DNA from: Mycolicibacterium smegmatis
GTDB taxonomy: Bacteria; Actinomycetota; Actinomycetes; Mycobacteriales; Mycobacteriaceae
Assembly: GCF_001457595.1 (NCBI RefSeq)
Contig: NZ_LN831039.1
Span: 6,600,001-6,632,000, forward strand
Direction: 5' to 3'
Length of the DNA: 32,000 bases
Positions 4,227 through 26,758 of the stretch are shown here, piece after piece (the first letter of the stretch is position 1; each line of letters begins with the position of its first letter). The notes below the pieces were generated by a model that saw nothing but the letters and a program-made list of their open reading frames with translations, made no database searches and was not told where the DNA came from. The translations under genes were made by a program, and so were the position numbers.

Positions 4227-4384
4227 AATTTGCCTGAGCGGAAATCTATCCGGCGCACGCCCCGTCGCCACACCAGTCTTTTACCAGGTGATTGACGTTT
4301 GTCGATAGCGCTGCTTACAGTCCCGTCCAGCAGACAGCGAGATAGCTGACTGGTTTCTAGTGAGATTGCTGAACGGGGTATCGC

Positions 4385-6406
4385 ATGCGGGGGGACGGTA
4401 GCTGGATGCCGGGTGCAGGAAACTTCCTGCACGATGGTCGGCACAGTGTGTGGTTGGGCTGGCCGGCGCGTTGGCTGGCCGCGTTGTGCGCGGTGGCGCT
4501 CACCGTCGGCGGGCTGCACCTGCTGGCGCCCTTGCCGCCGAGCGGGGCCGACGAGGCGGCGCAGGGGTTCGCCGACGCCGCGATCGCCGCGTTCACCGAT
4601 TCGGCGGTGGGCTCGGACCCGACACTGACCGCCCCGGCGCGCCGCGCCGGATTACCTGACGACCCGGTGGCCGGGTTGACCTCCCCGACTCCCGCCGGGC
4701 CGGTGCAAGTGGTACTACCGGGCGGGCTCGGCAACGCCCAGCACACCGCAGGCGGGCAAGTCGTCTACCCGAACGCCGGTGCCGGGTTCGACCTGTTGGC
4801 CGAAAACACGGGGAGCGGTACCCGCACCGTGGCCCGGATCAGCGACCCGGGCGGGCCGCGGATGGTCACCACGTTCGTGCGCACCCCGGCCGACACCGTC
4901 ATGCTGGCCCACACCAACGGCTATCTGACCATCAACAAAGCCACTCCCACCGCCGAGACCATCGGCATGTTCTCCCCGGCCGAAACCCGCGACGCCACCG
5001 GCGCATTGGTGCCCAGCTCCTATGTCGTCAAACAACTCGCCCCGCAGTTGTATGTGCTCGCCGAAGTCATCGACCCCCAACCGCACACCACCTGGCCGGT
5101 CTACGCCGACCCACCCCTGCACCTGACCGGGCCCGGCGGGGTGCCGGTGGGCTTGTTCGATTCGTTCACCAACACCGTCAGCTCGCTCGCCGACACTGCG
5201 ACCTCGGCGGTCACCACCGTCGCCTCGGCCACCGTGTCCGGTGCCAAGGCCGTGGGTGGGTTCGTCAAGGAAAACCCACTGGAATCGGCTCTGCTCGTGG
5301 GTGGTGTCGCGTTGGCGGTCACCGGCGTCGGTGGCCCCGCGGGTGCTGCGATGATCGCCTCGGCCACCGTCAACATCTCCAGCGCCGCCGTCGACATCGC
5401 TGCCGCCGCCATGCCCGACAACCAGACCCTGGGCATCGCCTCCACGGTGCTCGGCGCCGCGTCCATGGTCACCCCGCAAGGCGCCGCCAAGAAGGCCGTC
5501 AAAGAAGGCGCCGAACTCGCCGCCGAACAACTGGGCAAGCACGCCGACGACGTCATCGACGTCGCCAAAACCACCCCCACCCCACCAGCACAACTCGCCG
5601 ACGAGGTAGCAGCCGCAGGCACCCCGAAACCCCCAGTCACACCTGGTGTCTCACCGAAAGCCCCCAACGCGCCCCCGGTCAAGGCTGCAGATTCGTCGCC
5701 GAACGCAATCCCGGGCGGGGAGCAGAGCTGGGCGATGGCACCTGCGCCCAACGACAGGCGATTGAGCACCGACATCACCTCGCGCGTGCCGCTACGAAAA
5801 GGCACTAAGCAGCAAGTCCGCGACACTCATCCGTTCCACGACAGCGACGGCACTCCGCTCGATCCGCACACGTTTGAGCGGATTGAAGGGACGCCGCACT
5901 TCGGGCACAAACCAGAGTTCAAGGATGAGACGTCGCGGAAGATGACCGAGAAGTACGGGTTATCGCGTCGTGAGCGGGTCGAATGGGAAAACGTTCCCGA
6001 CCACTACCAACTCGAGAAGCCGCTCGAAAACAGTGGCCACAAGCACGAAATCCCGTACCGGCCAGGCGATGAAGACAAACTGTATGACAAGTTCGTGGAC
6101 TGGTCGCGCAAAGAGATCCATACCAACCCCCGGCTGGCCAAGGATCCCACGGCGCAGCGTCGAGCTAGCCTGGCCCGTCCGACGGGCCCAGACCAGAAAC
6201 GGCAAGTTCAGCATGTTCGCGCGGAGCAGACCACGAATAGGGTGCGCGATACAGCACGTGATAGCGCCCGCGATGCCAACCAATCCAGAAGCCGAAGCGG
6301 CAGTGACTCAGGATCGAAATCCAGTGGTAAATCGTCGGATAAGAAGTCCGATAAGAAGAAGGACAAGAAGAGCAAGAAGCATCACAAGAAGCCGTCCGGG
6401 AAGTGA
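4385..6406 (+). CDS. Secreted polymorphic-toxin-like protein with C-terminal GH-E-type HNH/EndoVII nuclease motif and Lys-rich tail
   Basis: 673-aa ORF with these parts. An N-terminal hydrophobic signal/TM (res 27-50, ...LLAPLPPSGA/DE). A domain of about 250 aa. A Gly/Ala-rich hydrophobic segment (res ~296-365). A Pro-rich linker (res ~396-445). Then HFGHKPEFKDETSRKMTEKYGLSRRERVEWENVPDHYQLEKPLENSGHKHE (res ~505-555). Finally a basic tail ...KSSDKKSDKKKDKKSKKHHKKPSGK. ATG 4406 is an alternative start. Confidence 0.8.
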   Translation: MRGDGSWMPGAGNFLHDGRHSVWLGWPARWLAALCAVALTVGGLHLLAPLPPSGADEAAQGFADAAIAAFTDSAVGSDPTLTAPARRAGLPDDPVAGLTSPTPAGPVQVVLPGGLGNAQHTAGGQVVYPNAGAGFDLLAENTGSGTRTVARISDPGGPRMVTTFVRTPADTVMLAHTNGYLTINKATPTAETIGMFSPAETRDATGALVPSSYVVKQLAPQLYVLAEVIDPQPHTTWPVYADPPLHLTGPGGVPVGLFDSFTNTVSSLADTATSAVTTVASATVSGAKAVGGFVKENPLESALLVGGVALAVTGVGGPAGAAMIASATVNISSAAVDIAAAAMPDNQTLGIASTVLGAASMVTPQGAAKKAVKEGAELAAEQLGKHADDVIDVAKTTPTPPAQLADEVAAAGTPKPPVTPGVSPKAPNAPPVKAADSSPNAIPGGEQSWAMAPAPNDRRLSTDITSRVPLRKGTKQQVRDTHPFHDSDGTPLDPHTFERIEGTPHFGHKPEFKDETSRKMTEKYGLSRRERVEWENVPDHYQLEKPLENSGHKHEIPYRPGDEDKLYDKFVDWSRKEIHTNPRLAKDPTAQRRASLARPTGPDQKRQVQHVRAEQTTNRVRDTARDSARDANQSRSRSGSDSGSKSSGKSSDKKSDKKKDKKSKKHHKKPSGK

Positions 6407-6482
6407 CAACGACTGCGACAAGGTGAAGTCGGCCCGGGTGGTCGCGCGACCCGTCCGTCGTCACGAGTAGGTGAGATGCTAC

Positions 6483-6941
6483 ATGGGCGAGGCAACGGGC
6501 ATACTCGCGCTGCGAAGGTATTGGAAAGGGTGGAATCCGGTGGCCAAGAGTGCTCTGCATACGTCGGCGGGCCTTGACCTTGTTGATGATTTGCGTCGAG
6601 AAATCGTTGATGGGCTCGACATCAACGAAGCCGACGAGGCCGGACTGACTCCTCTACACCACGCCTGCATTCACTGGAGCTACGAATCCGCCAAGATCCT
6701 CCTGGAAGCCGGAGCTGATGTCGACCCCCGAGACCAATGGGGTAACACACCGTTACTGCGGGTGGTCGGCAGCCGAGACGACAGCTTGGCATGGGTCACA
6801 TTGCTGCTCGAATACGGCGCTAACCCAACGATCGAGAACAACTACGGACACTCCCCGCTTAGCAACGCGAAACGAATGCAGGGAACCGAACGGTTGCTTC
6901 CGGCGCTTGAAGAAGCGCAGAAGCGATTTACCGCGCAATAG
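6483..6941 (+). CDS. Ankyrin-repeat protein, candidate cognate immunity protein
   Basis: Ankyrin consensus TPLHHA...LLEAGADVDPRD.WGNTPL...LLEYGANP. It starts 76 nt after the toxin stop on the same strand. AGGTGA lies ~10 nt upstream of ATG 6483; the ORF track start GTG 6471 is the alternative. Confidence 0.85.
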   Translation: MGEATGILALRRYWKGWNPVAKSALHTSAGLDLVDDLRREIVDGLDINEADEAGLTPLHHACIHWSYESAKILLEAGADVDPRDQWGNTPLLRVVGSRDDSLAWVTLLLEYGANPTIENNYGHSPLSNAKRMQGTERLLPALEEAQKRFTAQ

Positions 6942-7545: not shown

Positions 7546-7603
7546 CCAAGTCATCGTGCACCAGGTCATCGCCAAGACTGATTGAGATGGGAAGCTGATC
7601 GCT

Positions 7604-8008
7604 ATGGCTCGCACACCGTTGCACATGTTCGGGATGAAATACCGCCGCGACGAGTACCTGGCGTTGATCGCCAGCGGCGAACACGACGTCAACGCCCAAG
7701 ACCTCGACGGTAAGACGCCGCTGCACTATGCGACCGAGCAGGAACAGTCGGAGATCGTGCACGCGTTGTTGGACGCCGGGGCTGATCCGAACGTTCAAGA
7801 ACGCATCTACGGCAATACCCCGCTATCGCAGGCGGTCCTTGAGATTGTCGAGCCCGGGGATCCGGTGATCGTCAAGATGCTCGACCACGGAGCCGACCCC
7901 ACCATCGCCAACAACTACGGCCACTCCGCGCTATCTTCCGCGCGCAGCATCGGCCGTAGCTGTGTGCCGCTGCTTGAAGCCGCCGCAGCCAAAAACAAGC
8001 AGGACTGA
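7604..8008 (+). CDS. Ankyrin-repeat protein, candidate orphan immunity protein
   Basis: KTPLHYA...LLDAGADPN...YGNTPL...LDHGADPTIANNYGHSALSSAR. This parallels ankyrin-1 (GANPTIENNYGHSPLSNAK) but is clearly diverged elsewhere. Confidence 0.85.
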   Translation: MARTPLHMFGMKYRRDEYLALIASGEHDVNAQDLDGKTPLHYATEQEQSEIVHALLDAGADPNVQERIYGNTPLSQAVLEIVEPGDPVIVKMLDHGADPTIANNYGHSALSSARSIGRSCVPLLEAAAAKNKQD

Positions 8009-8031: not shown

Positions 8032-9501
8032 TCAATACCTGTGGATGAGCCTCGGTGTGGGGGCGTGAAGATGGGCGCACCTTCCCGGGGATGATCTTCA
8101 CGGAATCAGGTATTCGATCAAGACCGGCGTTGGCGCGCTGGTTGGGAAGGTACGCCCATGCTCACCGTAGTTCACGACACCGAGGACGCCAACGACAAGG
8201 CCAGCGGTGCTGGTCGGTCGTTGTTGGATGAGATCGTCCGCGACGGGGCCCGGCAGATGCTGGCCGCGGCGTTGCAGGCCGAGGTCGCCGCCTACGTGGC
8301 GCAGTTCGCCGATCAACTCGACGAGAACGGTCACCGGTTGGTGGTGCGAAACGGCTATCACCAGCCCCGGGAGGTGCTGACCGCCGCCGGCGCGGTGCAG
8401 GTGAAAGCGCCGCGGGTCAACGACCGCCGTGTCGACCCCGACACCGGTGAACGCAAGCGGTTCTCCTCGGCGATCCTGCCGGCCTGGGCGCGCAAGTCGC
8501 CGCAGATGAGCGAGGTACTGCCGCTGCTGTACCTGCACGGCCTGTCGAGCAACGATTTCACCCCTGCCCTCGAGCAGTTCCTCGGCTCCGGCGCTGGGCT
8601 GTCGGCCAGCACGATCACCCGGCTCACGGCGCAGTGGCAAGACGAGGCCCGCGCGTTTGGGGCCCGCGACCTCTCGGCCACTGATTACGTGTATCTGTGG
8701 GTCGACGGCATTCACCTCAAGGTGCGGCTGGACCAGGAAAAGCTCTGTCTGCTGGTGATGCTGGGCGTGCGTGCTGATGGCCGCAAGGAGCTCGTGGCGA
8801 TCACCGACGGCTACCGCGAGTCGGCCGAGTCGTGGGCCGATCTGTTGCGCGACTGCAAGCGCCGCGGCATGACCGCCCCCGTACTCGCGATCGGCGATGG
8901 CGCGCTCGGGTTCTGGAAAGCAGTCCGCGAGGTTTTCCCGGCCACCAAAGAGCAGCGGTGCTGGTTTCATAAGCAGGCCAATGTTCTTGCTGCACTGCCG
9001 AAATCAGCGCACCCGTCGGCGCTGGCGGCGATCAAGGAGATCTACAACGCCGAGGATATCGACAAGGCCCAGATCGCGGTCAAGGCCTTCGAGGCCGACT
9101 TCGGCGCGAAGTATCCCAAGGCGGTCGCTAAGATCACCGACGACCTCGATGTGCTGCTGGAATTCTACAAGTATCCGGCCGAACATTGGATTCATCTGCG
9201 AACGACGAATCCGATCGAATCCACCTTTGCCACAGTGCGTTTGAGGACCAAGGTCACCAAGGGGCCCGGATCACGAGCGGCCGGACTAGCGATGGCCTAC
9301 AAGCTCATCGACGCCGCCGCGGCCCGCTGGCGTGCCGTCAACGCCCCACACCTGGTCGCCCTGGTCCGCGCCGGCGCGGTCTTCCATAAAGGCAGACTGC
9401 TCGAACGACCCACCGACATCACCCCGCCAACATCGCCCTCAGACGGCGGTCAGCACGCCGGAACGGAGGTCGCCTGAAACACCCCGATCCACAGGTATTG
9501 A
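8032..9501 (+). mobile_element. IS256-family insertion sequence (IS6120/IS1081-like)
   Basis: Perfect 15-bp terminal inverted repeats TCAATACCTGTGGAT (8032..8046) and ATCCACAGGTATTGA (9487..9501) flank a mutator-type transposase. The repeats extend to 20 bp with 2 mismatches. No 8-9-bp target duplication was found at either boundary choice. Confidence 0.8.
8158..9477 (+). CDS. IS256-family (mutator-type) transposase
   Basis: 439-aa ORF with hallmark stretches for this family: YLWVDGIHLKVR, LAIGDGALGFWKAV, QRCWFHKQANVL, TTNPIESTFATVRLRTK. Confidence 0.9.
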   Translation: MLTVVHDTEDANDKASGAGRSLLDEIVRDGARQMLAAALQAEVAAYVAQFADQLDENGHRLVVRNGYHQPREVLTAAGAVQVKAPRVNDRRVDPDTGERKRFSSAILPAWARKSPQMSEVLPLLYLHGLSSNDFTPALEQFLGSGAGLSASTITRLTAQWQDEARAFGARDLSATDYVYLWVDGIHLKVRLDQEKLCLLVMLGVRADGRKELVAITDGYRESAESWADLLRDCKRRGMTAPVLAIGDGALGFWKAVREVFPATKEQRCWFHKQANVLAALPKSAHPSALAAIKEIYNAEDIDKAQIAVKAFEADFGAKYPKAVAKITDDLDVLLEFYKYPAEHWIHLRTTNPIESTFATVRLRTKVTKGPGSRAAGLAMAYKLIDAAAARWRAVNAPHLVALVRAGAVFHKGRLLERPTDITPPTSPSDGGQHAGTEVA

Positions 9502-9883
9502 CAATTCCTCCTCGGCACATTCATTGTAGGAAAGACCTTCTACTACAAGGGCGCAAGCGAACTCGAGCTGGGCTCGGTGGCTGTTCCCTCGGGCCGGCTG
9601 CGGATCCGCGACCCGTTCTTTCCCCACCCCGGTCCTGATGACGGTTGCTTGCTGATCGTCGCGCCGGGGACGTACCGCGTCTGGGTCACCCTCGTCGAGA
9701 TCCCTGCCCTGCATGACGAAACCGAGCTGGAGACCCGCGAGGCCTATCTGTCGATCGGCCTCAACGACCGCACGCCCACCGGCTTGGACTACGCCGATGC
9801 TCTGCTGCCCTCACCTCGGCCCAGCTTCGGCGCGATGACCGGCACCGATTCCGGCAACATCGCGGTCTTCGACGACACTGAGG
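9502..9883 (+). pseudogene. Internal fragment of a DUF4241-like gene trapped between two IS elements
   Basis: The frame is open from the IS256 end (9502) and runs into the IS3 end. LELGSVAVPSGRLRIRDPFF...APGTYRVWV...REAYLSI...TDSGNIAVFDD fits my recollection of the DUF4241 pattern. Both the start and the C-terminal third are missing. Confidence 0.45.
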
Positions 9884-9959
9884 TGAGCCCCCTGTAGTGG
9901 TCCAGTCGTTGTGGGGACTCTGTTGCCCGAGTGTTCGGGCAGGAAGAATCACCAACGAC

Positions 9960-10247
9960 ATGACATCGAACAAACGCCGGCGGCATACCCCGGATCAGAT
10001 CATCCGCAAGCTCGCCGAGGGCAACAAGCTCCTGGGGACCGGCCAGGAACTCGCCGAGGTGTGCCGGCACCTGGAGATCACCGAGTCGACCTGGCATCGC
10101 TGGGTGGCCCAGTACGGCGGCATGAAAGCCAACGAGGCCAAACGCCTCAAGGAGCTCGAGGCGGAGAACGCCCGGCTCAAGAAGCTGGTCGCCAACCAGG
10201 CCCTCGACATCGACATGCTCAAGGAGATCTCGTCGGGAAACTTCTGA
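9960..10247 (+). CDS. IS3-family transposase OrfA (HTH plus leucine zipper)
   Basis: MTSNKRRRHTPDQIIRKLAEGNKLL...RLKELEAENARLKKLVANQALDIDMLKEI is typical of IS3 OrfA. The ATG at 9960 is preferred over the ORF-track start at 9897, which lies in the inverted repeat. Confidence 0.8.
   Translation: MTSNKRRRHTPDQIIRKLAEGNKLLGTGQELAEVCRHLEITESTWHRWVAQYGGMKANEAKRLKELEAENARLKKLVANQALDIDMLKEISSGNF
10235..10241 (+). other. Candidate programmed -1 ribosomal frameshift heptamer G_GGA_AAC
   Basis: In the orfA zero frame the codons are tcG GGA AAC ttc tga. This is the X_XXY_YYZ form, 4 nt before the orfA stop. The -1 frame continues GKLLTPNRKR... into OrfB. Confidence 0.55.
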
Positions 10248-11098
10248 CCCCGAACCGCAAGCGCAGCGCCGTCATCGCTCTGCGTGAACGGTTCGGGGTC
10301 TCTGAGCGCCGCGCGTGCTCGGTCGTCGGGCTGCACCGCTCGACGATGCGTCTGACGCCGGCTCCGGTCACCACCGAGGAGACCGAGTTGCGGGCGTGGC
10401 TGCGCCGGTTCTCCACTGATCGGCCGCGCTGGGGGTGGCGCCGGGCGGCGAAGATGGCCCGTCGCGCCGGCTGGAATGCCAACAACAAGCGCATCCGCCG
10501 ACTGTGGCGCGAGGAGGGCCTGCGGGTGCCTCAGCGGCGCCGCAAGAAGCGGCTGACGGGGATCGGGGTCGCCGTGGGGGCGATGTCGCCGATCCGTCCG
10601 AATGCGATCTGGGCGATGGACTTTCAGTTTGATACCACCGCTGATGGTCGCACGCTGAAGATGCTCAACGTGATCGACGAGTTCACCCGCGAAGCCCTCG
10701 CCATCGAGGTGGATCGCAGCATCGATGCCGACGGGGTCGTGGCTGTGCTGGATCGGCTCGCGCTCGTCCATGGGGCGCCGCACTATGTGCGTTTCGACAA
10801 CGGGCCTGAGTTCGTCGCGCACGCGGTGCGCGATTGGTGTCGATTCAACAGCGCCGGTTCACTTTTCATCGATCCGGGTTCGCCATGGCAGAACGCCTGG
10901 ATCGAATCGTTTAACGGCAGACTGCGAGACGAACTGCTCAACCTGTGGCGCTTCGATTCGCTACTGGAAGCCCGGGTGATCATCGAGGACTGGCGCTGCG
11001 ATTACAACGCCAACCGGCCCCACTCAGCCCACGGTGACCGCACCCCAGCCGAGTTTGCCCTACAGTGGGCCACGACCCATCAACCGAAAGTCGCATAG
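10235..11098 (+). CDS. IS3-family transposase OrfB (DDE integrase), expressed as OrfAB fusion by -1 frameshift
   Basis: The -1 frame downstream of the slippery site encodes ...PNAIWAMDFQFD...VRFDNGPEF...PGSPWQNAWIESFNGRLRDE...YNANRPHSA, the rve/DDE signature. The N-terminal part of ORF 9911..11098 overlaps orfA out of frame and is not real. Confidence 0.8.
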   Translation, partial: GKLLTPNRKRSAVIALRERFGVSERRACSVVGLHRSTMRLTPAPVTTEETELRAWLRRFSTDRPRWGWRRAAKMARRAGWNANNKRIRRLWREEGLRVPQRRRKKRLTGIGVAVGAMSPIRPNAIWAMDFQFDTTADGRTLKMLNVIDEFTREALAIEVDRSIDADGVVAVLDRLALVHGAPHYVRFDNGPEFVAHAVRDWCRFNSAGSLFIDPGSPWQNAWIESFNGRLRDELLNLWRFDSLLEARVIIEDWRCDYNANRPHSAHGDRTPAEFALQWATTHQPKVA

Positions 11099-11127
11099 CG
11101 ACTGGACCACCAAACGGGTCCCCCTCA

Positions 11128-11603
11128 CGGTGTTCAGCGCTCTGTTGACGACGACAGGTTGCGTTGTCGAAGGTCGTCCGGTGAGCGACGACCTACCGAC
11201 CGCCGACAAGTTGGGTTTACCCCAACAGAGCTTGCTCACAGAGCCGATGCGGCGCCAACCGGTGCCGGGTTGGACGGTCGAGGCGGCCGATCTGGGACTG
11301 CAGACGAAGGACCGCATTCGATTCTCGCCGATCGGGAATGACGGAGACCGCGCGCTGTTCCTGGCGATGACGGTGCAGGAAGCCTGGGTCATCGGCATCG
11401 ACGTCGGCAGCGGCCACAAATTGTTCGAGCCAGTCTGGTTAGGCAACCACGGCAGTGCAGAGGCATTGCTCGCCACGGTTTGCCATCTCAATGGCGCGAG
11501 CATGGTGTTGTGTCTCCGCGAAGATCCCCTTGCAAAACCACCGGCGCGCGCGTGGGTGATCGACACCGCGACGGGCGAGTTGATTTACGACGGCCCAACC
11601 GAA
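11128..11603 (+). pseudogene. 5'-truncated, IS-interrupted lipoprotein-like / PQQ-like beta-propeller gene, left fragment
   Basis: It starts directly at the IS3 end with a remnant lipobox (VFSALLTTTGC) and no start codon or n-region. The motif IDVGSGHKLFEPVW and VIDTATGELIYDG are propeller-like. It is cut at 11603 by the IS1380-like element. Confidence 0.45.
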
Positions 11604-13274
11604 CTAAGCCTCGATCCACCGATGGAAAGCCTGGATAGGCGGGTGTCGATATAAGGAAAGTGCCTTCTGAGCTGCGATGATGAGTGTTCCTTACGCACTT
11701 ATCGGCACAACTTCGAAAGGCACTTCCGGTGAAAGTGTCGCACAACTTCATGGCTGCGTCTGCAGTGTTCGATGATGAGCATCTGGTGTCGTGCGCCGGC
11801 CTGGTGCCGGTGATGACCCTGGCCAGCCAGACCGGGCTATCGGACCTGATCGCGGACAAGGTCGAAATCGTTGAACCGCGGATCAAGTCCGGCTCGGCCA
11901 ATCCGTCACCGAAGCTGACGACAGTAATCGCCGGAATGTGCGCCGGCGCCGACAGCATCGACGACCTCGACATCGTGCGCTCCGGTGGAATGAAAGCCCT
12001 CTTTGGCGGCGTGTACGCGCCCTCGACCATCGGAACACTGTTGCGGGAGTTCACCTTCGGACACGCCCGACAACTGGAAGCAGTGCTGCGTGAGCATCTG
12101 GGCGGGCTCTGCGAGCGCGTCGCGTTGCTACCCGGCGCCGATACCCAAGCGTTCGTCGACATCGATTCACTGCTGCGCCCGGTCTACGGCCACGCCAAAC
12201 AAGGAGCCTCCTACGGACACACCAAGATCGCCGGCAAGCAGATCCTGCGCAAAGGCCTCTCGCCGCTGATCACCACCATCAGCACCACCACGGGTGCCCC
12301 GATGATCACCGGAGCCCGGCTGCGGGCGGGCAAGACCAACTCCGGCAAGGGCGCAGCCCGGATGATCGCCCAAGCAGTCACCACCGCCCGCGCCGCCGGT
12401 GTCAACGGGCAGATCCTGGTGCGCGGAGACTCGGCCTACGGCAACAGCACCGTGGTGAATGCCTGCCGACGCGCCGGTGCCCACTTCTCGCTGGTGCTGA
12501 CCAAGACCCGCGCCGTCGCTGCGGCCATCGAGGCCATCAGCGATAACGCCTGGACCCCGGTCAACTACCCCGGCGCAGTGCGCGACCCCGACACCGGCGC
12601 CTGGATCTCCGATGCCGAAGTCGCCGAAACCACCTACACCGCTTTCAGTTCCACCAACACCCCGGTCACCGCTCGGTTGATCGTGCGCCGGGTCAAAGAC
12701 GCCCGATACCTCGATGCGCTGTTTCCGGTGTGGCGGTATCACCCCTTCTTCACCGATTCCGACGAACCCGTCGACGCCGCTGACATCACCCACCGCCGCC
12801 ACGCCATCATCGAAACCGTGTTCGCCGACCTGATCGACGGACCGTTGGCGCATATGCCCTCCGGGCGGTTCGGCGCGAACTCGGCCTGGGTCCTGTGCGC
12901 GGCGATCGCCCACAACCTGCTGCGCGCCGCCGGGGTGCTCGCCGGCGGTGCCCATGCCCTCGCGCGCGGAGCCACACTGCGCCGCAAGATCGTCAACATC
13001 CCGGCTCGACTGGCTCGGCCCCAACGCCGACCCATCCTGCATCTACCCTCGCATTGGCCGTGGGCCCAGCAGTGGCTCACATTGTGGCGCAACACAATCG
13101 GCTACAGCCCGCCAACTGCTGCGACCCACTGACCACCGGACCCACAGGCCCCGACCCGAACATCACAGGAAAAGCTGGGCAGACCAGCGGCTACAGGCTG
13201 CCCACGACCTGGGCGCACGACAAAAATCAGCCCCAAACAACCTCAACAGGGTCGATCCACGGATCGAGGCTAAG
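11604..13274 (+). mobile_element. IS1380-family-like insertion sequence (~1.67 kb; possibly IS1549-related)
   Basis: Terminal inverted repeats CTAAGCCTCGATCC (11604..11617) and GGATCGAGGCTAAG (13261..13274) match at 13 of 14 positions and enclose a single long DDE transposase ORF. Confidence 0.65.
11684..13132 (+). CDS. IS1380-family DDE transposase
   Basis: FDDEHLVSCAGLVPVMTLA...AGMCAGADSIDDLDIVRSGG...APSTIGTLLREFTFGH...VRGDSAYGN... matches what I recall of actinobacterial IS1380-family transposases. The true start may be a downstream GTG or ATG (11732-11750). Confidence 0.75.
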   Translation: MFLTHLSAQLRKALPVKVSHNFMAASAVFDDEHLVSCAGLVPVMTLASQTGLSDLIADKVEIVEPRIKSGSANPSPKLTTVIAGMCAGADSIDDLDIVRSGGMKALFGGVYAPSTIGTLLREFTFGHARQLEAVLREHLGGLCERVALLPGADTQAFVDIDSLLRPVYGHAKQGASYGHTKIAGKQILRKGLSPLITTISTTTGAPMITGARLRAGKTNSGKGAARMIAQAVTTARAAGVNGQILVRGDSAYGNSTVVNACRRAGAHFSLVLTKTRAVAAAIEAISDNAWTPVNYPGAVRDPDTGAWISDAEVAETTYTAFSSTNTPVTARLIVRRVKDARYLDALFPVWRYHPFFTDSDEPVDAADITHRRHAIIETVFADLIDGPLAHMPSGRFGANSAWVLCAAIAHNLLRAAGVLAGGAHALARGATLRRKIVNIPARLARPQRRPILHLPSHWPWAQQWLTLWRNTIGYSPPTAATH

Positions 13275-19466: not shown

Positions 19467-20708
19467 GTGGCCTCATCCGCGGCGTTGCAGGATCGCCTCG
19501 GCCAGCGGTTCAAGCACTGGCGTTACGACCCGCCGTACAAGACCGCATGCGCGGGCATGGTGATTCTCGTCGTCACGGTGCTGGTGCTGACCTGGATGCA
19601 GTTCCGCGGTGATTTCGAGGACAAGGCCGAGATCACGCTGTTCGCAAGCCGATCCGGGTTGTCGATGGACCCCGGTTCGAAGGTCACGTTCAACGGTGTG
19701 CCGATCGGCCGCCTCAAGGGCGTCGACGTGGTCGAGGTCGACGACAATCCCGAGGCCAGGCTGACGCTCGACATCGATCCGAAGTACCTCGACCTGATCC
19801 CGGCGAACGCGGTCGCCGAGCTGCGCGCGACGACGGTGTTCGGCAACAAGTACGTCTCGTTCACCGCGCCCGAGCATCCGTCGGCCGAACGCCTCTCGGC
19901 GTCCACACCCATCCGGGCGCAGGGCGTGACCACGGAGTTCAACACGCTGTTCGAGACCATCACCGCGATCTCCGAGCAGGTCGACCCGATCAAGCTCAAC
20001 GAGACCCTGACCGCTGCCGCACAAGCCCTCGACGGCCTGGGCGACAAGTTCGGCCGCTCGATCGTCGACGGCAACGCGATCCTGGCCGACGTCAATCCGC
20101 GCATGCCGCAGATCCGTCGCGACATCACGGGTCTGGCGAACCTCGGCGAGGTCTACGCCGACGCGGCCCCGGATCTGTTCGACGGTCTGGACAACGCCGT
20201 GACCACCGCACGCACCCTCAACGACCAGCGCCACGATCTCGATCAGGCGCTGGTGGCGGCGGTCGGGTTCGGCAACACCGGCGGCGACATCTTCGAGCGC
20301 GGCGGCCCGTACCTGGTGCGCGGAAATCAGGACCTGCTGCCGGTCTCGGAGATGTTCGACCGCAACAGCCCCGCGCTGTACTGCACGATCAAGAACTACC
20401 ACGACGCTGCGCCCAAGTTCGCCGCGCAGACCAACAACGGCTACTCGTTCCAGCTGAACGACACGTTCGTCGGCGCGGGGAACCCGTACGTGTATCCGGA
20501 CAACCTGCCGCGCGTGAACGCCAGGGGCGGCCCCGAGGGCCGGCCCGGCTGCTGGCAGCCCATCACCCATGATCTGTGGCCCGCGCCGTATCTGGTGCTC
20601 GACACCGGCGCGTCGATCGCGCCGTACAACCACTTCGAACTGGGCCAGCCGATGTTCATCGAGTACGTGTGGGGCCGCCAGGTCGGCGAGAACACCATCA
20701 ACCCGTGA
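19467..20708 (+). CDS. MceA-like MCE-family protein, solitary
   Basis: PPYKTACAGMVILVVTVLVLTWMQFRGDF plus an MlaD domain (VTFNGVPIGRLKGVDV), a helical region and a Cys/Pro-containing C-terminus. This resembles Mce1A as I recall it. No yrbE or mceB-F genes are adjacent. Confidence 0.8.
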   Translation: MASSAALQDRLGQRFKHWRYDPPYKTACAGMVILVVTVLVLTWMQFRGDFEDKAEITLFASRSGLSMDPGSKVTFNGVPIGRLKGVDVVEVDDNPEARLTLDIDPKYLDLIPANAVAELRATTVFGNKYVSFTAPEHPSAERLSASTPIRAQGVTTEFNTLFETITAISEQVDPIKLNETLTAAAQALDGLGDKFGRSIVDGNAILADVNPRMPQIRRDITGLANLGEVYADAAPDLFDGLDNAVTTARTLNDQRHDLDQALVAAVGFGNTGGDIFERGGPYLVRGNQDLLPVSEMFDRNSPALYCTIKNYHDAAPKFAAQTNNGYSFQLNDTFVGAGNPYVYPDNLPRVNARGGPEGRPGCWQPITHDLWPAPYLVLDTGASIAPYNHFELGQPMFIEYVWGRQVGENTINP

Positions 20709-21597
20709 CGGTCTTGGCTTCCATCTCGGCTTCGAGCGTCTCCTCGTAGGCGCCCTCGTCGCGGCCCAGGGCGATGGTCGCCGCGATCATCGCGGCGATC
20801 GCCAGCGTCAGGGCGACGGGTTGCCAGCCGGCGATCGACAGGTGTTCACCCAGCACGACCGAGCCGAGCAGCACCGCGACGACGGGTTCGAGCACCAGCA
20901 TCGTCGGCACCGAGGTCTGCAGCGAGCCGGCGTGGAACGCCGACTGCTGAAGCAGGGTCGCCAGGACCCCGAGCACCACGACGAGATACAGCGCGGGTGT
21001 CGTGAACGTCGCGAGCACGTCGCCGTCGGCGACCATGTGCATCACGATCTTGGTGAGCACGGCCACGACACCGAACATCACGCCCACCGCGGCGGCCAGC
21101 AGCACCGCGCGACGCCAGTTGCTGCTGCGCGTCGCGAGCACGACGCACAGGGCGACGACGGACGTGCAGACCACCGCGACGGTGACCGTGGTCGACACCG
21201 AAACCGAATAGGTCCCCGTGCTGGTACGGGCCAGCAGCACGAACACGGTCAGCGCGCCCGTGAGCAACAGCGCCCACATCCAGTCGGCGCGACTCACCGT
21301 GCGGTGCGCCAGGCGCGCGCTCAACGGCAATGCGAACAACAGCGCCGACACCAGGACCGGTTGCACCAGCAGCAGGGAGCCGAATCCGAGCGCGAGTGCC
21401 TGGAACCCGTATCCCATGACGGCCGAGATGGTGCCTGCCCACCACAGCTTGCGCCGCAGCAGCGTCCGCAGCATCACGGTGCTCACGCCTTTCCCGGCGG
21501 GAACGTCCAGCGTCGCGCGTTGGCGCACCACGATGCCGACGGCCATGAAGATCGCTGCACACAGAGCGAGAAGCACCGCGATGCTGTTGCCGAGCAC
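20698..21597 (-). CDS. DMT-superfamily (EamA-like) membrane transporter
   Basis: 299 aa with about 10 hydrophobic helices and an acidic C-tail. GTG start. It converges on mce with an 11-nt overlap. Confidence 0.65.
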   Translation of the reverse strand: MLGNSIAVLLALCAAIFMAVGIVVRQRATLDVPAGKGVSTVMLRTLLRRKLWWAGTISAVMGYGFQALALGFGSLLLVQPVLVSALLFALPLSARLAHRTVSRADWMWALLLTGALTVFVLLARTSTGTYSVSVSTTVTVAVVCTSVVALCVVLATRSSNWRRAVLLAAAVGVMFGVVAVLTKIVMHMVADGDVLATFTTPALYLVVVLGVLATLLQQSAFHAGSLQTSVPTMLVLEPVVAVLLGSVVLGEHLSIAGWQPVALTLAIAAMIAATIALGRDEGAYEETLEAEMEAKTVTG

Positions 21598-21630: not shown

Positions 21631-21981
21631 TTACTCGCCGGACGCGGAGTCGGAGGTGTCCGGCGTCGCGGTCAGGTACTCCAGGATGCCGGTGATGTCG
21701 AGCAGCCGCTCAAGATGCGGTGGCCGACGATCGATGTGCAGCTGGATGCCCGCAGGCGAGGTCTGCCGGTGGATGTTGAGCAGGCCGGACAGGCCCGCAG
21801 AATCGCAGAAGGTCAGGTCGGCGCAGTCGAGCCGCAGATCGTCGAGGGTCTGGTTGGTCGACAGGAGCTCGCTCACGTAGTCGACCAGTTTGTTGGTGGT
21901 CATGAAGTCGAGCTCACCGGCGACGGTCACCGTCGCCGATCGGCTGCCGTTCTCGGCTGCGGTGTTCAGTGAGAGGTTCAT
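21631..21981 (-). CDS. STAS-domain anti-sigma-factor antagonist (RsbV/SpoIIAA-like)
   Basis: 116 aa from ATG 21981. VAGELDFMTTNKL...LRLDCADLTFCDSAGLSGLL retains the DS(x)G phospho-serine context. Its ATG overlaps the upstream stop as ATGA. The 456-aa ORF-track version is an artefactual 5' extension. Confidence 0.8.
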   Translation of the reverse strand: MNLSLNTAAENGSRSATVTVAGELDFMTTNKLVDYVSELLSTNQTLDDLRLDCADLTFCDSAGLSGLLNIHRQTSPAGIQLHIDRRPPHLERLLDITGILEYLTATPDTSDSASGE

Positions 21982-23075
21982 CCATTGCGCCTTGCGTAGG
22001 TGGCGTGCAACATGTCGCGGGCTGCGCTGAGCATCCGCTGGGTCCTGGGGAAGTCCTGCAACTGAGCTCCGAGCAGTTCGAGGGTGGGCTGTAGCGAATC
22101 TACCGGTACACCGCGCGCGTCGAGCACCTCGGCGGTCCAGGCGATGAACCCCGTGAACAGTTCGGGGTCGTCGACGTAGAGCGCCGTGGCGAGGAAGTCG
22201 ACGATGTGCGCGACGTCGGTGCTGGTGTGTTGGCGTTGTAGTTGGGAGTAAGACGCCATGGCTGGTACCCGTTTTTCCAGCCCGGAAACCGTGTCCCGGA
22301 CCAGCTGTCCAGCGGTGGTGCTGACCATGGTGTATTCCTGGTCGGCGAGGTGGGGAAGCTCGTCGAACAGGTGGTCGCGGGGCGCGCGCCGCGTCAGGGC
22401 GAGACCGTCGGCCAGTTGCGCGGCCGCGGCCCTGGCGTCCGGTGCCCACGCGTCGGCCCCGAGCAGCCGCGCGTAGCGACCGTCGGGTCCGAATCCGGCG
22501 CCGCCCACCAGCACGGGCACCCCGGCCCCCTGGCATGCCGTGATGGCCGCGTGTGCTGTGGGCAGGCGGGTGGATATCGAGCACGACAGTGCGACCGCGT
22601 CGGGTCCGTGCTGATGCAGGTGGGCGATCAGGTGCGGCGTGGGCACCTGGGCGCCGAGGAAGTCGACGCGCCAGCCCCGCAGTCGCAGCACCTCGGCGAG
22701 CAACCGCGCCGGCAGCGCGTGCCATTCGCCGTCGGCGCAGGCCACGGCAACCCGCCCGGTGGTGGTCTGCCGTGCCACGGCCGGGTGGCGTACCAGCGCC
22801 GCGATCACGCGGTCGTTGATCGCGGTCGCGGCGTGCTCGGCGGCCACGCTCAGGCGGTTGTCGGCCCATTCCACGCCCACCCTGCGCTGCACGGCGGCGA
22901 TGACGTCGAGCAGCAGATCCTCGGCGGGCACTCCGTCCTCGAGCGCCCCGAACACCACGTCGACCGCGGCGTCCTCGTCGGCGTCGATCACCGCGTCCCA
23001 CAACCTGTCCCGCAACGACTCGACCACGGCGGGATCCGTCACGGGATCGGCCGCCGCGCCGTCACTGTGGCTCAC
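21978..23075 (-). CDS. Cobalamin (B12)-binding domain protein with C-terminal helical domain
   Basis: A B12-binding_2 helical bundle (GVEWADNRLSVAAEHAAT) is followed by a Rossmann B12 domain with an E-x-H motif (ADGEWHALPARLLAEVLRLRGWRVDFLG...VLVGGAGF). The GTG start at 23075 overlaps the PP2C stop as GTGA. Confidence 0.7.
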   Translation of the reverse strand: MSHSDGAAADPVTDPAVVESLRDRLWDAVIDADEDAAVDVVFGALEDGVPAEDLLLDVIAAVQRRVGVEWADNRLSVAAEHAATAINDRVIAALVRHPAVARQTTTGRVAVACADGEWHALPARLLAEVLRLRGWRVDFLGAQVPTPHLIAHLHQHGPDAVALSCSISTRLPTAHAAITACQGAGVPVLVGGAGFGPDGRYARLLGADAWAPDARAAAAQLADGLALTRRAPRDHLFDELPHLADQEYTMVSTTAGQLVRDTVSGLEKRVPAMASYSQLQRQHTSTDVAHIVDFLATALYVDDPELFTGFIAWTAEVLDARGVPVDSLQPTLELLGAQLQDFPRTQRMLSAARDMLHATYARRNG

Positions 23076-24715
23076 CGCCGAACCTCGCTCCGCAGAACAC
23101 TTTCCGCACGGCGCCCGCGGCGGGGTGCGGTGATCGCGACCACCGCGACGTCGTCGTGACCGCGCTGCCGGATCCACTCGGCGGTCAGCATCATGATCCG
23201 CTCCACGACCGCCTCCGCGGGCAGGCCCGCGCACTCCGAAAGCGCGGCGGCGAGCCTTTCCTCGCCGAACATCTCATTGCCCATCGGGCCGCCCCTGGCC
23301 TCGGTCACGCCGTCGGTGTAGAGCAGGCACGTCTCCCCGGGTTCCAGGATCGTCTCGCACGTCGTGGCCGTGATCTCGGGGACGGCGCCGACGAGCATGC
23401 CGCGCGTACCGGCCTCTTCGACACTGCCGTCGCGACGGACGATCAACGGCGACATGTGCCCCGCGCTGGTGAGCCGCAGCGCCACGTCGTCGTCGCGGCG
23501 GGCGGCCGACGCGAGCACGACAGTGGCGAAGCGTGTGTGTGCCGCCGACAGCAGCGCGCGGTTCAGCAGCCTCAGCACACGGCCGTGGTCGTCGGCCAAC
23601 GGCGCGAGCGCCTGCAGGGTGTTGCGGATCTTTCCGGTGAGGACCGCTGCGTCCAGACCCTTTCCGCACACGTCTCCGAGTACGACGAGGGTTTCGTCGT
23701 CGGGTGTGGTCGCGGGGTGCACATCGTAGAAGTCCCCGCCGACGGTCTGGTGGTCCTCGGCCGCGCGGTAACCACCCGCGATCTCGATTCCGTGCTGGTG
23801 CGCCAGTTTCGGCGGCAGCAACTCGTCCATCAGGGTGCGTGTGATCGCCGCCTGCTCGGCGTACAGGCGTGCGGCCGACAGGGCGGCGCCCGCGCGTGCC
23901 GCGAAGAGCCGGGCGAACACCTCTTCACCGTCGTCGAACGCGGATTTGGCGCTGTGGCGCAGCAGCACCAGCGCACCGGCGGGCACGCCGTGTCCCGGTA
24001 GCGGCGTGACGACCACCGATCCGACGGTCCCGGTGAGGTCGCGCGGGATGAGCCAGTCGGGTACCGAGTTCGGGTCGATCCACCGAGACGGCACCGGCGG
24101 GAAACCGCGCAGCGCTTCGGTGAGTCCCGCCACGGTCGCCGGGTCGGCCTCGACGCTGCGGTGCTCGACCGTCCCGGCGGTGCACACCATGTCGAGGCGC
24201 GGCCCGCTCGGCGGCGCGATGACCACGGCGCCGTCGGCGAGTCTCGGGACGGCGACCCGGACGATCGCCTCCATGCAGCGGTCGGCGTTCAGCGACGCCA
24301 TGAGCACCGCCGACACCTCGTCGAGGAAGTTCGCGCGCTCGCGTTCGCGCCTCAGTTCGCGCTCGACGGCGCGCAATTCACGGCCGGCATCGGTGACAGC
24401 GCCGGCGCGGCCCGCGGGGAACAACCACCACGCCACCTCGCCTCGGGGCAACGGCGTGGGTCGCGCTGTGCAGCCGTCGGGCCCGGTCTCGGTCTGGGCG
24501 GGTCCCGCGTCGCCGTGGCGGACGTGGGCCTCCCACAACCACGGTGCGCAATCGGACAGGTGGCGACCGGTGCGCAGGCCCGGCAGCGCATCGCGTGCGG
24601 CATCGCTCGCCGACCGGATGACGCCCTCGGCGTCCGCGACGATCACCGGATGGGGAGCAGAGGTCCAGACGTCGTCGAGTGCGCCCTCGACGTCGATCGC
24701 CGCCTCTTCCCTCAT
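23072..24715 (-). CDS. PAS-GAF-PP2C (SpoIIE/RsbU-like) serine phosphatase
   Basis: 547 aa. It has an N-terminal PAS-like region, a GAF-like middle, and C-terminal PP2C motifs GGDFYDV, LGDVCGKGLDAA and LLYTDGVTEA. Confidence 0.8.
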   Translation of the reverse strand: MREEAAIDVEGALDDVWTSAPHPVIVADAEGVIRSASDAARDALPGLRTGRHLSDCAPWLWEAHVRHGDAGPAQTETGPDGCTARPTPLPRGEVAWWLFPAGRAGAVTDAGRELRAVERELRRERERANFLDEVSAVLMASLNADRCMEAIVRVAVPRLADGAVVIAPPSGPRLDMVCTAGTVEHRSVEADPATVAGLTEALRGFPPVPSRWIDPNSVPDWLIPRDLTGTVGSVVVTPLPGHGVPAGALVLLRHSAKSAFDDGEEVFARLFAARAGAALSAARLYAEQAAITRTLMDELLPPKLAHQHGIEIAGGYRAAEDHQTVGGDFYDVHPATTPDDETLVVLGDVCGKGLDAAVLTGKIRNTLQALAPLADDHGRVLRLLNRALLSAAHTRFATVVLASAARRDDDVALRLTSAGHMSPLIVRRDGSVEEAGTRGMLVGAVPEITATTCETILEPGETCLLYTDGVTEARGGPMGNEMFGEERLAAALSECAGLPAEAVVERIMMLTAEWIRQRGHDDVAVVAITAPRRGRRAESVLRSEVRR

Positions 24716-24761
24716 CCAATCTCCTCACGCCCAGAACTCGCGCCCGCCTCGGGCACGAGGA

Positions 24762-25058
24762 CTAGACGACCTGCAGGTGCCGCCTGGGACGTGGTTGCAC
24801 GTCGTCCTCAGACGGTACCGGGGGATTCGGCGGTGGAGGAGCGATCTTGTCATTGACGCTGGCCACGACCGAGTCAACGCGGTTCACCGCGTTGTCACAC
24901 ATGTCGCGCACCCGACCGCTGGCGGTCTCAACGTCGTCGGCTGCACTGCGCAGGTATGCCCTGAGGTTAACCCGAAGCCGTTCACCCGCGCTGCGCGCCC
25001 GCTGCCGAACGCGGTCGTCCACCTCGATGGTGACGTACCTCGTCAACCGGAATCTCAT
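24762..25058 (-). CDS. Hypothetical 98-aa protein (helical, Pro-rich tail), possibly first gene of the PP2C operon
   Basis: The ORF has about 75% G/C at third codon positions by hand count. It sits 46 nt upstream of the PP2C gene on the same strand. I recognised no motif. Confidence 0.4.
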   Translation of the reverse strand: MRFRLTRYVTIEVDDRVRQRARSAGERLRVNLRAYLRSAADDVETASGRVRDMCDNAVNRVDSVVASVNDKIAPPPPNPPVPSEDDVQPRPRRHLQVV

Positions 25059-25215: not shown

Positions 25216-25923
25216 TCATTCGGTGTTGATGCCGTCCCAATCCACCAGCGTCCAGCCACCGGTGGGATTGCCCTTGACCACCGCGTGACCGGTGTTGCCG
25301 AGCGGGTGGCGCGACAGCAGGCCGAGATCGGGATTGTCGACGTTCATGGCGACCCACGTCATGATCGCGCCGGCGTGCGAGAAGGCCACGGGATCGGTGT
25401 CCTCACTGTCGTAGATCTCGCGGACGGCCTCGTCGAACCGGGCGTCGAACTCGTCGCCGTCGATCGAACCCGGAATCCGCGCGGTCCGGTCGCCCTGCAA
25501 CCACCGCGTCGGGGCCTCGTAGTAGGTGAAACCCGCGAGCGCCTCGGGTTGTCCCTCGTAGATACCTGCCTCGATCTCCCGTAGGCCCGGCAACACCGTC
25601 ACGGGTTCTCTCGACAGATCCGCGAGGGGCTGCGCGGTCTGTTGCGTGCGGATCATGGTGGACGCGTAGATCCCGTCGAACGTGTGCCCGGCGGCGAGTT
25701 TCTGCGCGGCGGTTTCGGCCTGTTCGCGTCCCAGCGCGGTGAGCGGCGGGCCGGGTGTCGAGGTGTCGATCAAACCCGAGGCGTTGCCTTCGGACTGCGC
25801 GTGGCGCACGAGCGTCAGCGTGATGATGCGCTGTGCGACGGCGTTCGGCGCGGTCAGCATCCCCGCGACCAGGGCCACCACCAATGCCGCGACGGCCGCG
25901 GTTCTTCTGGTGTGCGTTGTCAT
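25216..25923 (-). CDS. Secreted histidine phosphatase (phosphoglycerate mutase-like) family protein
   Basis: RHAQSEGN catalytic RHG motif. The signal peptide MTTHTRRTAAVAALVVALVAGMLTAPNAVAQ is Tat-like. ATG 25923 is preferred over the longer track ORF, and it lies 1 nt after the AraC stop. Confidence 0.75.
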   Translation of the reverse strand: MTTHTRRTAAVAALVVALVAGMLTAPNAVAQRIITLTLVRHAQSEGNASGLIDTSTPGPPLTALGREQAETAAQKLAAGHTFDGIYASTMIRTQQTAQPLADLSREPVTVLPGLREIEAGIYEGQPEALAGFTYYEAPTRWLQGDRTARIPGSIDGDEFDARFDEAVREIYDSEDTDPVAFSHAGAIMTWVAMNVDNPDLGLLSRHPLGNTGHAVVKGNPTGGWTLVDWDGINTE

Positions 25924-25924
25924 G

Positions 25925-26758
25925 TCAGCTTCCGGTCGCTCGGCGGCGGTAGTTCGACGGCGTCTCCCCACAGAACTGCGCGAAGCATCGCGTGAAGGAG
26001 CTCAGGTTCTCGAAGCCCACGGCGGTCGCGGTCGCCTGCACCGACTGGTCCTGATCGGCAAGCAGCGCCATGGCGCGCAACATCCGTGCATGCAGAAGGT
26101 ATGTGCGCCAGGACATCCCGATCGTGTCGGCGAACAGTCGCCGCAGCGTGCGTTCGGAGACCGACACCGCCCGGCTCACCTGCTCGGCGGTCACCGAGTC
26201 GAGGTGTTCCTTGGTGTAGGCCAACGCCGCCGCGACGATGGGGTTGTCGGACGTCGGCAGGCTCAGCGGCGCCTCGTGGTCGAGTGCCTCGGCGACCAGG
26301 TTGGCCAGTGTCTGGAAGAAGCCGTCGGAGATCTCGTCGCCGTCGGCCCGGTCGATGGGCCAGCGCAGGCCGTAGATCATCATCTCGCGGATCAGCGGCG
26401 ACACGGCGATGATGCGTGCGCGGGTACCGCCGTCGGGGATCATCTGCGGGTCGAACATCACCGCGACGGTCTTGACGTCCGGGTTCATCACCGCCTGGTG
26501 CTGTAGGCCCGCCGGAATCCACGCGGCCTGCTGCGGCGGCAGCAGATAGTGGGCCGCGTCGGTCTCGACCTCGACGACGCCGTGCAGCGCGTACTCGATC
26601 TGATGCACCTCGTGCGAGTGCCATCCGGTGATCAGCCCCTCGCCCTCGTAGAGGTAGCTGCCTGCCGGCGCGCGGCCACCGCGGCGCAGTTCGATGACCG
26701 GGCGGGTGAGGTTGGCCGTTTCGGTCAAACCTCTGTCCGAAAGCGCAGAGACGGTCAC
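25925..26758 (-). CDS. AraC-family transcriptional regulator with N-terminal cupin domain
   Basis: Cupin region (GWHSHEVHQIEYALHG) and a C-terminal HTH_18 (VGFENLSSFTRCFAQFCGETPSNYRRR). Confidence 0.85.
   Translation of the reverse strand: MTVSALSDRGLTETANLTRPVIELRRGGRAPAGSYLYEGEGLITGWHSHEVHQIEYALHGVVEVETDAAHYLLPPQQAAWIPAGLQHQAVMNPDVKTVAVMFDPQMIPDGGTRARIIAVSPLIREMMIYGLRWPIDRADGDEISDGFFQTLANLVAEALDHEAPLSLPTSDNPIVAAALAYTKEHLDSVTAEQVSRAVSVSERTLRRLFADTIGMSWRTYLLHARMLRAMALLADQDQSVQATATAVGFENLSSFTRCFAQFCGETPSNYRRRATGS

Follow-up and report, generated by a model that had tools for sequence, protein, structure and literature searches.

The minus strand of a 32,000-nucleotide stretch of the Mycolicibacterium smegmatis genome (contig NZ_LN831039.1, positions 6,600,001 to 6,632,000; the whole stretch is called the window below) contains three head-to-tail open reading frames (ORFs) for a PP2C serine phosphatase of the SpoIIE/RsbU type with probable PAS and GAF domains, a B12-binding protein and a STAS anti-sigma-factor antagonist. 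The original prediction, made from the sequence alone, had described them as an operon that might feed a cobalamin or light signal into partner switching. Domain calls were based on a Pfam scan of the window ORFs and family cut-offs on NCBIfam models. The B12-binding protein, 99% identical to an M. smegmatis entry, is identified here, by sequence and structural model, as a stand-alone photocobilin (Pcob), and the three genes are interpreted as a putative light-sensing cassette.

Layout and conservation of the three-gene cassette

According to the ORF listing, the phosphatase (547 aa) is encoded at 23072-24715, Pcob (365 aa, GTG start) at 21978-23075 and the STAS protein (116 aa) at 21631-21981. 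The genes overlap as originally described: on the coding strand, GTGA at 23072-23075 combines the stop of the phosphatase gene with the start of the Pcob gene, and ATGA at 21978-21981 combines the stop of the latter with the start of the STAS gene. Scans of the locus for sigma-70 promoters and terminators returned no match.

One genome per species was scanned for Pcob relatives. The scan yielded 427 relatives and the closest 80 loci were examined, 31 of them mycobacterial, 33 from Streptomyces and 16 from other actinobacteria; the genera include Mycobacterium, Streptomyces, Nonomuraea, Amycolatopsis, Nocardioides and Pseudonocardia. A phosphatase homologue with 53-68% identity was located directly upstream of Pcob on the same strand in all 80 loci, and a STAS homologue directly downstream in 74, which upholds the triad as a conserved unit across Actinobacteria. 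The four-nucleotide NTGA overlap was present at the junction of phosphatase and Pcob genes in 73 of the 80 loci and at the junction of Pcob and STAS genes in 60 of the 69 loci with a scorable STAS gene. The stoichiometric co-production that had been deduced from the overlaps is in line with this strong conservation, but holds only in part, as in M. smegmatis the STAS gene can also be driven separately, from a SigF-type promoter that lies within the Pcob gene.

A 98-aa ORF located 46 nt upstream had been considered a possible fourth member of the operon. It is a genuine conserved mycobacterial gene with 121 homologues, and as a query it gave no match near the cassette in the 80 loci, even at E<10. 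In the Mycobacterium peregrinum group the same chromosomal backbone occurs without the cassette, in the order amidohydrolase, AraC, histidine phosphatase, 95-aa homologue of the 98-aa ORF, DMT, Mce, SDR, TetR, CMD and EF-G-like gene. The membership of the 98-aa ORF in the operon was rejected on these grounds. Because the 95-aa homologue directly abuts the DMT gene in this backbone, the three genes are, as judged from gene order, a self-contained unit set between backbone genes, with the 98-aa gene outside. None of the flanking genes of the window (98-aa ORF, histidine phosphatase, AraC, DMT, Mce) accompanied the cassette in the 80 loci.

Like the 98-aa gene, the gene at 25216-25971 on the minus strand belongs to this backbone; it encodes a histidine-phosphatase-superfamily protein that starts with a signal-like segment and whose best NCBIfam match, below cut-off, is the alpha-ribazole phosphatase CobC. 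The context of the cassette in slow-growing mycobacteria differs from that in M. smegmatis: it adjoins a phosphoribosyltransferase-like gene and the wag31 (DivIVA)/yggT end of the cell-division cluster (loci L007, L009, L013, L015, L016, L018, L023, L027, L036 and L053). A HemL-like gene, named by eye from its sequence after the glutamate-1-semialdehyde aminomutase of tetrapyrrole synthesis, lies at most about 4 kb from the cassette in 9 of the 80 loci (L021, L025, L028, L030, L031, L035, L045, L046 and L055).

The middle protein as a stand-alone photocobilin

The 365-aa protein matched the Pfam families B12-binding_2 (6e-14) and B12-binding (2.8e-20), both above cut-off, and the motifs pointed out in the original prediction were located in the corresponding domains. 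A four-helix bundle (residues ~15-96, 22788-23033) carries W70 (22866-22868) and E80-H81 (22833-22838), which together form the W-x9-EH motif of the adenosyl pocket that marks light-sensing B12 domains. The Rossmann B12-binding domain that follows (residues ~107-222, 22410-22757) contains the lower-ligand motif E117-W-H119, with H119 at 22719-22721. The C-terminal part, regarded before as an uncharacterised helical domain of ~130 aa, is instead a photoglobin domain (residues ~236-359, 21999-22370), a globin that Schneider et al. 2021 (PMC8717448) delineated by computation and that binds biliverdin in the photocobilin SasPcob; it aligned with the SasPcob structure 8J2W, on which the model of the M. 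smegmatis protein superposes.

SasPcob from Saccharothrix syringae, crystallized in the dark (8J2W) and after illumination (8J2X), was described together with AbPcob by Zhang et al. 2024 (PMC10979010). In a search of PDB sequences, phmmer aligned Pcob with 8J2W/8J2X over residues 20-357 (E=9e-89) and with 8J2Y at 1.4e-41. The identity to SasPcob is ~50% overall; it is highest in the Rossmann domain (64%), followed by the helical bundle (48%) and the linker plus globin (38%). An AlphaFold2 (AF2) model of Pcob with a mean predicted local distance difference test (pLDDT) score of 86 superposed on 8J2W/8J2X over 342 columns with template modelling (TM) scores of 0.84-0.93 and root-mean-square deviations (rmsd) of 2.0-2.9 Å. 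CarH and other B12 domains covered just the first ~210 residues of this model, and the B12 module matched that of TtCarH with a target-normalised TM score of ~0.85. CarH was also the best NCBIfam match (52.9 bits against a cut-off of 400), with profile positions 80-262 alone covered. A MerR-type helix-turn-helix (HTH) DNA-binding domain was not found in Pcob by Pfam.

The residues that contact the cofactors in SasPcob have counterparts in the M. smegmatis protein. W70 corresponds to Trp61 and E80-H81 to Glu71-His72 of the adenosyl pocket, H119 to His108, the lower cobalt ligand, and D287 (22215-22217) and W313 (22137-22139) to the biliverdin contacts Asp270 and Trp296. In the crystal, His108 ligates cobalt in the base-off/His-on form, and Asp270 and Trp296 hold biliverdin in the globin domain (Zhang et al. 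2024, PMC10979010). All six residues of the M. smegmatis protein were invariant in 81 of 81 cassette Pcobs. By sequence and model, the middle protein is thus a stand-alone photocobilin that joins a CarH-type adenosylcobalamin (AdoCbl) module to a bilin-binding globin, an architecture that is not new. With its cofactor-binding residues intact, it is predicted to bind both AdoCbl and biliverdin.

Binding of AdoCbl and biliverdin and photoconversion by green and red light have been demonstrated for SasPcob and AbDPcob (Zhang et al. 2024, PMC10979010). The AdoCbl of SasPcob is photolysed by green light directly and by red light solely when biliverdin is bound, and AdoCbl raises the affinity for biliverdin ~10-fold. 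Light of either colour breaks the Co-C bond and alters the quaternary structure, and SasPcob modulates an unrelated enzyme in vitro through protein-protein contact (PMC10979010). Since Pcob is closely related to this proven photoreceptor, light gating is the most likely input to the cassette.

The photoglobin domain alone, used as query, retrieved 379 representative clusters at E<=0.001. The fusions seen included Pcob-GAF-ANTAR, GGDEF-Pcob and NIT-photoglobin (among P0485, P0452, P0414 and P0431). The match to P0431, a protein of 1547 aa, consists of 15 weak matched stretches and may be a repeat artefact; its Pfam matches are to the unrelated families P22_AR_C and TilS. No fusion of Pcob with SpoIIE was found among the best 150 photoglobin representatives; SpoIIE fusions were reported by Schneider et al. 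2021 (PMC8717448).

Phosphatase, STAS protein and a plausible link to SigF

The catalytic domain of the phosphatase was assigned with confidence (Pfam SpoIIE, 1.6e-42). Its metal-binding motifs GGD328FYD, GD348VCGKG, TD468G and HD521D522 are intact, and GGDFYD, GDVCGKG, TDG and HDD were invariant in two alignments of 25 and 40 homologues. The best solved relative by profile was Rv1364c (3KE6, 3.3e-16), and in Foldseek searches the C-terminal half of the AF2 model (pLDDT 82) matched Rv1364c, RssB, SpoIIE, SiaA and RsbX. The proposed PAS-GAF part was recovered less firmly than the PP2C domain, as both PAS (PAS_4, E 0.004) and GAF (E 0.002) remained below the Pfam cut-offs. At E<0.1, GAF was found in 20 of 25 homologues and PAS in 9 of 25. 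In the model, long helices link a small PAS-like unit to a GAF unit, and the N-terminal ~320 columns matched PAS-GAF(-PHY) modules with E values of ~3e-7 but high rmsd. The recurrence in homologues and the model both lend support to the two domains. The Foldseek matches of this half (residues 1-320, 23759-24715) are biliverdin-binding photosensory modules of bacteriophytochromes. Cys147 (24275-24277), located in the first GAF helix, was invariant in 40 homologues.

The STAS protein matched the Pfam STAS family (5.5e-14) and passed the anti-sigma-antagonist model TIGR00377 with 58.6 bits against a cut-off of 53.45; its best solved relatives are SpoIIAA (1TH8) and RsbV (6M36). The phosphorylatable serine, Ser61 (21799-21801), is part of the motif CDSAGL and was kept in 69 of 75 cassette STAS proteins. 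In 4 of the 75 the serine is replaced by proline; two of the loci, L012 and L014, read CDPMGL, and the phosphatase gene of L012 was detected as a short fragment alone. These loci suggest degenerate or rewired variants. The core of the original prediction has thus held: in a conserved, translationally coupled arrangement, a CarH-like B12 module that lacks a DNA-binding domain is flanked by a PP2C phosphatase on one side and by a phosphorylatable STAS protein on the other, as supported by Pfam, the conserved gene order, the overlaps and Ser61.

A connection to the sigma factor SigF emerged from published expression data. In stationary-phase ΔsigF cells of M. smegmatis, MSMEG_6541, annotated as 'anti-sigma factor antagonist', was down-regulated with a log2 value of -3.63, and the SigF consensus GTTT-N15-GGGTA was located 282 nt upstream of it (Singh et al. 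2015). According to the same authors, the gene was also down-regulated in the study of Hümpel et al. 2010. Exactly this motif occupies 22266-22289 of the minus strand of the window, within the photoglobin-coding part of the Pcob gene and ~285 nt before the ATG of the STAS gene; it is one of two SigF-type matches in the window, against 0.30 expected. As the published motif and its distance from the gene match, the STAS gene is identified as MSMEG_6541, and Pcob is therefore presumably MSMEG_6542 and the phosphatase presumably MSMEG_6543. A transcript MSMEG_6541-6539 headed by a transcription start site is among those listed by Martini et al. 2019. It is in line with transcription that begins within the Pcob gene and reads through into the DMT transporter gene, and together with the SigF motif it indicates a second, SigF-dependent source of STAS expression. 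The gap between the STAS gene and the DMT gene (20698-21597, minus strand) is 33 nt, and the latter shares 11 nt with an orphan Mce gene (19467-20708) that converges on it. As the STAS gene is SigF-dependent, a link of the cassette to SigF is plausible, and the cassette is a promising candidate for the route by which light would reach SigF. Strain mc²155 produces the pigment isorenieratene 'when incubated under light'; ΔsigF cells no longer form it, since the crt locus is driven by SigF (Singh et al. 2015).

Further support for partner switching came from Streptomyces, where HATPase_c_2 kinases occur within ~6 kb of the cassette in 12 of 33 loci, group-3 sigma factors in 5, extra SpoIIE phosphatases in 7 and MarR regulators in 10, along with extra STAS genes. 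The sigma factors are SigB-like paralogues. These neighbours support a partner-switching role of the cassette, with kinase and sigma factor presumably supplied in trans in mycobacteria.

Taken together, we consider it fairly probable that the three genes form a sensory cassette in which a light signal would pass from Pcob to the phosphatase, the STAS protein, an RsbW-type kinase and finally a sigma factor, for which SigF is the most plausible candidate. Depending on its light state, Pcob would act on the phosphatase by protein-protein contact. The sequence comparison points to the phosphatase as the direct partner of Pcob, because the pair is invariant even where the STAS gene is missing and because a natural Pcob-GAF-ANTAR fusion exists. 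By analogy with AbDPcob, light would activate. The phosphatase would then control the phosphorylation of Ser61, and unphosphorylated STAS would bind an RsbW-type kinase encoded elsewhere, most plausibly RsbW1 or RsbW2 of the SigF network. Sequestration of the kinase would free the sigma factor, which in M. smegmatis would switch on the SigF regulon, to which the crt carotenoid genes as well as the STAS gene belong. Through the promoter inside the Pcob gene, more STAS protein would be made, resulting in positive feedback.

Several observations weigh against such a chain. The STAS gene is absent after the phosphatase and Pcob genes in 5-6 of the 80 loci; unrelated genes on the opposite strand lie downstream there, except in one locus (L006) with a 29-aa STAS remnant. 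Neither an RsbW-type kinase nor a sigma factor was detected in the window by Pfam scans of the ORFs or by tblastn with kinase and sigma sequences from related loci, which confirms the absence noted in the original prediction, and all 31 mycobacterial loci likewise lack both next to the cassette. A single tblastn candidate (E=0.001) ran antisense within the Pcob gene and was taken as noise. The internal SigF motif was not conserved at the homologous position in the loci of other species, and the evidence for this promoter therefore comes solely from expression data published for M. smegmatis. The cassette genes are not among the components of the SigF system that have been defined biochemically in M. 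smegmatis (RsbW1-3, RsfA, RsfB, RsfS/RsfR), and in a preprint MSMEG_6541 is listed just as an untested STAS protein. The role of stand-alone photocobilins was called unclear by Zhang et al. 2024 (PMC10979010), and no experiment on any photocobilin-PP2C-STAS cassette was found in the literature.

The most specific form of the proposal is offered only tentatively. It holds that MSMEG_6543-6542-6541 are the missing photoreceptor arm of the SigF network, in which green or red light would lead via the phosphatase to dephosphorylated STAS, titration of RsbW1 (or RsbW2), release of SigF and isorenieratene formation, with the internal SigF promoter amplifying STAS.

A cassette that is gated by light and has an output other than SigF is rather unlikely, yet it accounts for part of the data. 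The STAS protein would then act either on another anti-sigma kinase or outside sigma control, for instance on an enzyme or a transporter. The absence of a cognate kinase or sigma factor near the mycobacterial cassettes fits this possibility, as do the precedents of partner-switching systems that act on non-sigma targets and of SasPcob modulating an unrelated enzyme in vitro. In Streptomyces, the SigB-like paralogues stand beside several STAS, kinase and PP2C genes, and the wiring is therefore likely lineage-specific. The reported co-transcription of the STAS gene with the downstream DMT gene in M. smegmatis, as given in the transcript list, fits as well; the DMT gene, however, is not conserved beside the cassette. 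The STAS protein itself passes the anti-sigma-antagonist model with SpoIIAA and RsbV as nearest relatives, and its gene is SigF-dependent, both of which speak against this alternative.

It is improbable that Pcob senses how much cobalamin (or bilin or haem) is available instead of sensing light, with cofactor loading switching the phosphatase. M. smegmatis lives as a soil saprophyte and synthesizes B12, which would suit such a sensor. AdoCbl binding alone alters the activity of the attached enzyme in the related AbDPcob (PMC10979010), and the ~10-fold shift in the biliverdin affinity of SasPcob upon AdoCbl binding points in the same direction. The W-x9-EH light-response signature is invariant, however, the closest relative photoconverts, and neither a cobalamin riboswitch nor a cobalamin gene was found in the window.

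The idea that Pcob is a corrinoid methyl-carrier with a meaningless PP2C/STAS neighbourhood, suggested by the JGI name 'methanogenic corrinoid protein MtbC1' of many homologues and by weak NCBIfam matches to MtbC, MtgC and MtaC, is effectively excluded, since these families scored 20-40 bits against cut-offs of 215-450 with CarH as best match, the full length agrees with the photocobilin crystal structures, no methyltransferase gene lies nearby in the window, and gene order and overlaps are conserved across the 80 loci.

Window context, related systems and significance

Upstream in the coordinates of the window, a gene on the plus strand (4385-6406) encodes a protein of 673 aa that ends in a GH-E (HNH/EndoVII) nuclease domain. 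It is followed by two small ankyrin-repeat ORFs (6471-6941 and 7586-8008, both plus strand) in a stretch of lower G+C content (0.57-0.58). The arrangement looks like a polymorphic toxin with immunity genes. The second SigF-type motif of the window, GTTT-N19-GGGTA at 4353-4380, is located just upstream of the nuclease gene. The region 8048-13132 contains three transposase genes, of the Mutator family (8095-9477), with an IS3-type HTH (9882-10247) and of the DDE_Tnp_1_4 family (11684-13132). The Rfam small RNAs Ms_AS-8 (8048-8122) and Ms_IGR-7 (11610-11728), both on the minus strand, lie antisense at the 5' edges of two of the transposase genes and may therefore be transcripts of insertion sequence ends.

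The neighbourhood of the cassette was in part known before, and the input route is therefore not undescribed, as the original prediction had assumed. Schneider et al. 2021 (PMC8717448) noted in a purely computational study that STAS and PAS-GAF-SpoIIE genes accompany the photoglobin/B12 genes of actinobacteria, with a coordination they stated to be unknown, and Zhang et al. 2024 (PMC10979010) predicted STAS, SpoIIE and PP2C partners for SasPcob from genome context. Neither study mentions mycobacteria or SigF in the context of the cassette, and in the later literature on photocobilins and photoglobins no paper on partner switching or mycobacteria was found. The M. smegmatis locus shares with the photoglobin family of Schneider et al. 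2021 the succession of B12-binding_2, B12-binding and photoglobin domains and the accompanying STAS and PAS-GAF-SpoIIE genes; a mycobacterial analysis, a SigF link, conserved overlaps and the behaviour as a cassette were not part of that study. With SasPcob, the protein has in common the full-length three-domain layout at ~50% identity, the motifs W-x9-EH and ExH, and the Asp and Trp that contact the bilin. In contrast to SasPcob, it is known from sequence and model, its globin part is just ~38% identical, and the SigF-dependent STAS gene with its internal promoter is specific to the M. smegmatis locus.

Among B12-dependent photoreceptors, CarH and LitR carry the same B12-binding module and light-sensing signature as Pcob and are reported to control light-induced carotenogenesis. 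Pcob differs from them in the lack of a MerR HTH and the presence of an extra globin, and its output presumably runs via the phosphatase instead of DNA binding. The pairing of a PP2C phosphatase with probable N-terminal sensor domains and a single-domain STAS protein that has a conserved serine resembles the partner-switching systems RsbU/RsbP-RsbV-RsbW, SpoIIE-SpoIIAA-SpoIIAB and RsfR-RsfB-RsbW2/RsbW1-SigF, in which RsbP is a PAS-PP2C protein and RsfR a sensor-coupled PP2C acting on RsfB. Unlike these systems, the cassette locus lacks the switch kinase and the sigma factor and has a separate B12/bilin sensor between the two genes. Rv1364c of Mycobacterium tuberculosis (PAS-PP2C-kinase-STAS), which contains the closest solved relative of the cassette PP2C domain and was proposed as a component of the SigF system, has all modules fused, its own kinase included, and no photoreceptor. 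Photoreceptor input to a cascade of the SigB/SigF type has a precedent in YtvA of Bacillus subtilis, a LOV-STAS protein of the stressosome with flavin in the LOV domain, which provides blue-light input to SigB. In contrast to the cassette, YtvA involves neither B12 nor bilin nor a dedicated pairing with a PP2C phosphatase.

New in the present analysis are the strict three-gene cassette with conserved overlaps and its presence across many mycobacteria, the identification of the cassette STAS gene with the SigF-dependent MSMEG_6541 and its internal SigF-type promoter, and the connection of the cassette to a pigment phenotype that depends on light and SigF. Photocobilins were first characterised in 2024. 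M. smegmatis is genetically tractable, its SigF partner switching has been dissected biochemically and the pigment that it forms under light depends on SigF; it therefore permits a direct test of the role of a stand-alone photocobilin in cells and of light sensing in a non-phototrophic mycobacterium. Should MSMEG_6543-6542-6541 indeed supply the SigF network with its photoreceptor, a biological output would for the first time be demonstrated for a stand-alone photocobilin, and a partner-switching cascade would for the first time be seen to receive light input through B12. The compact, self-contained cassette might further be used to switch protein phosphorylation in actinobacteria by green and red light.

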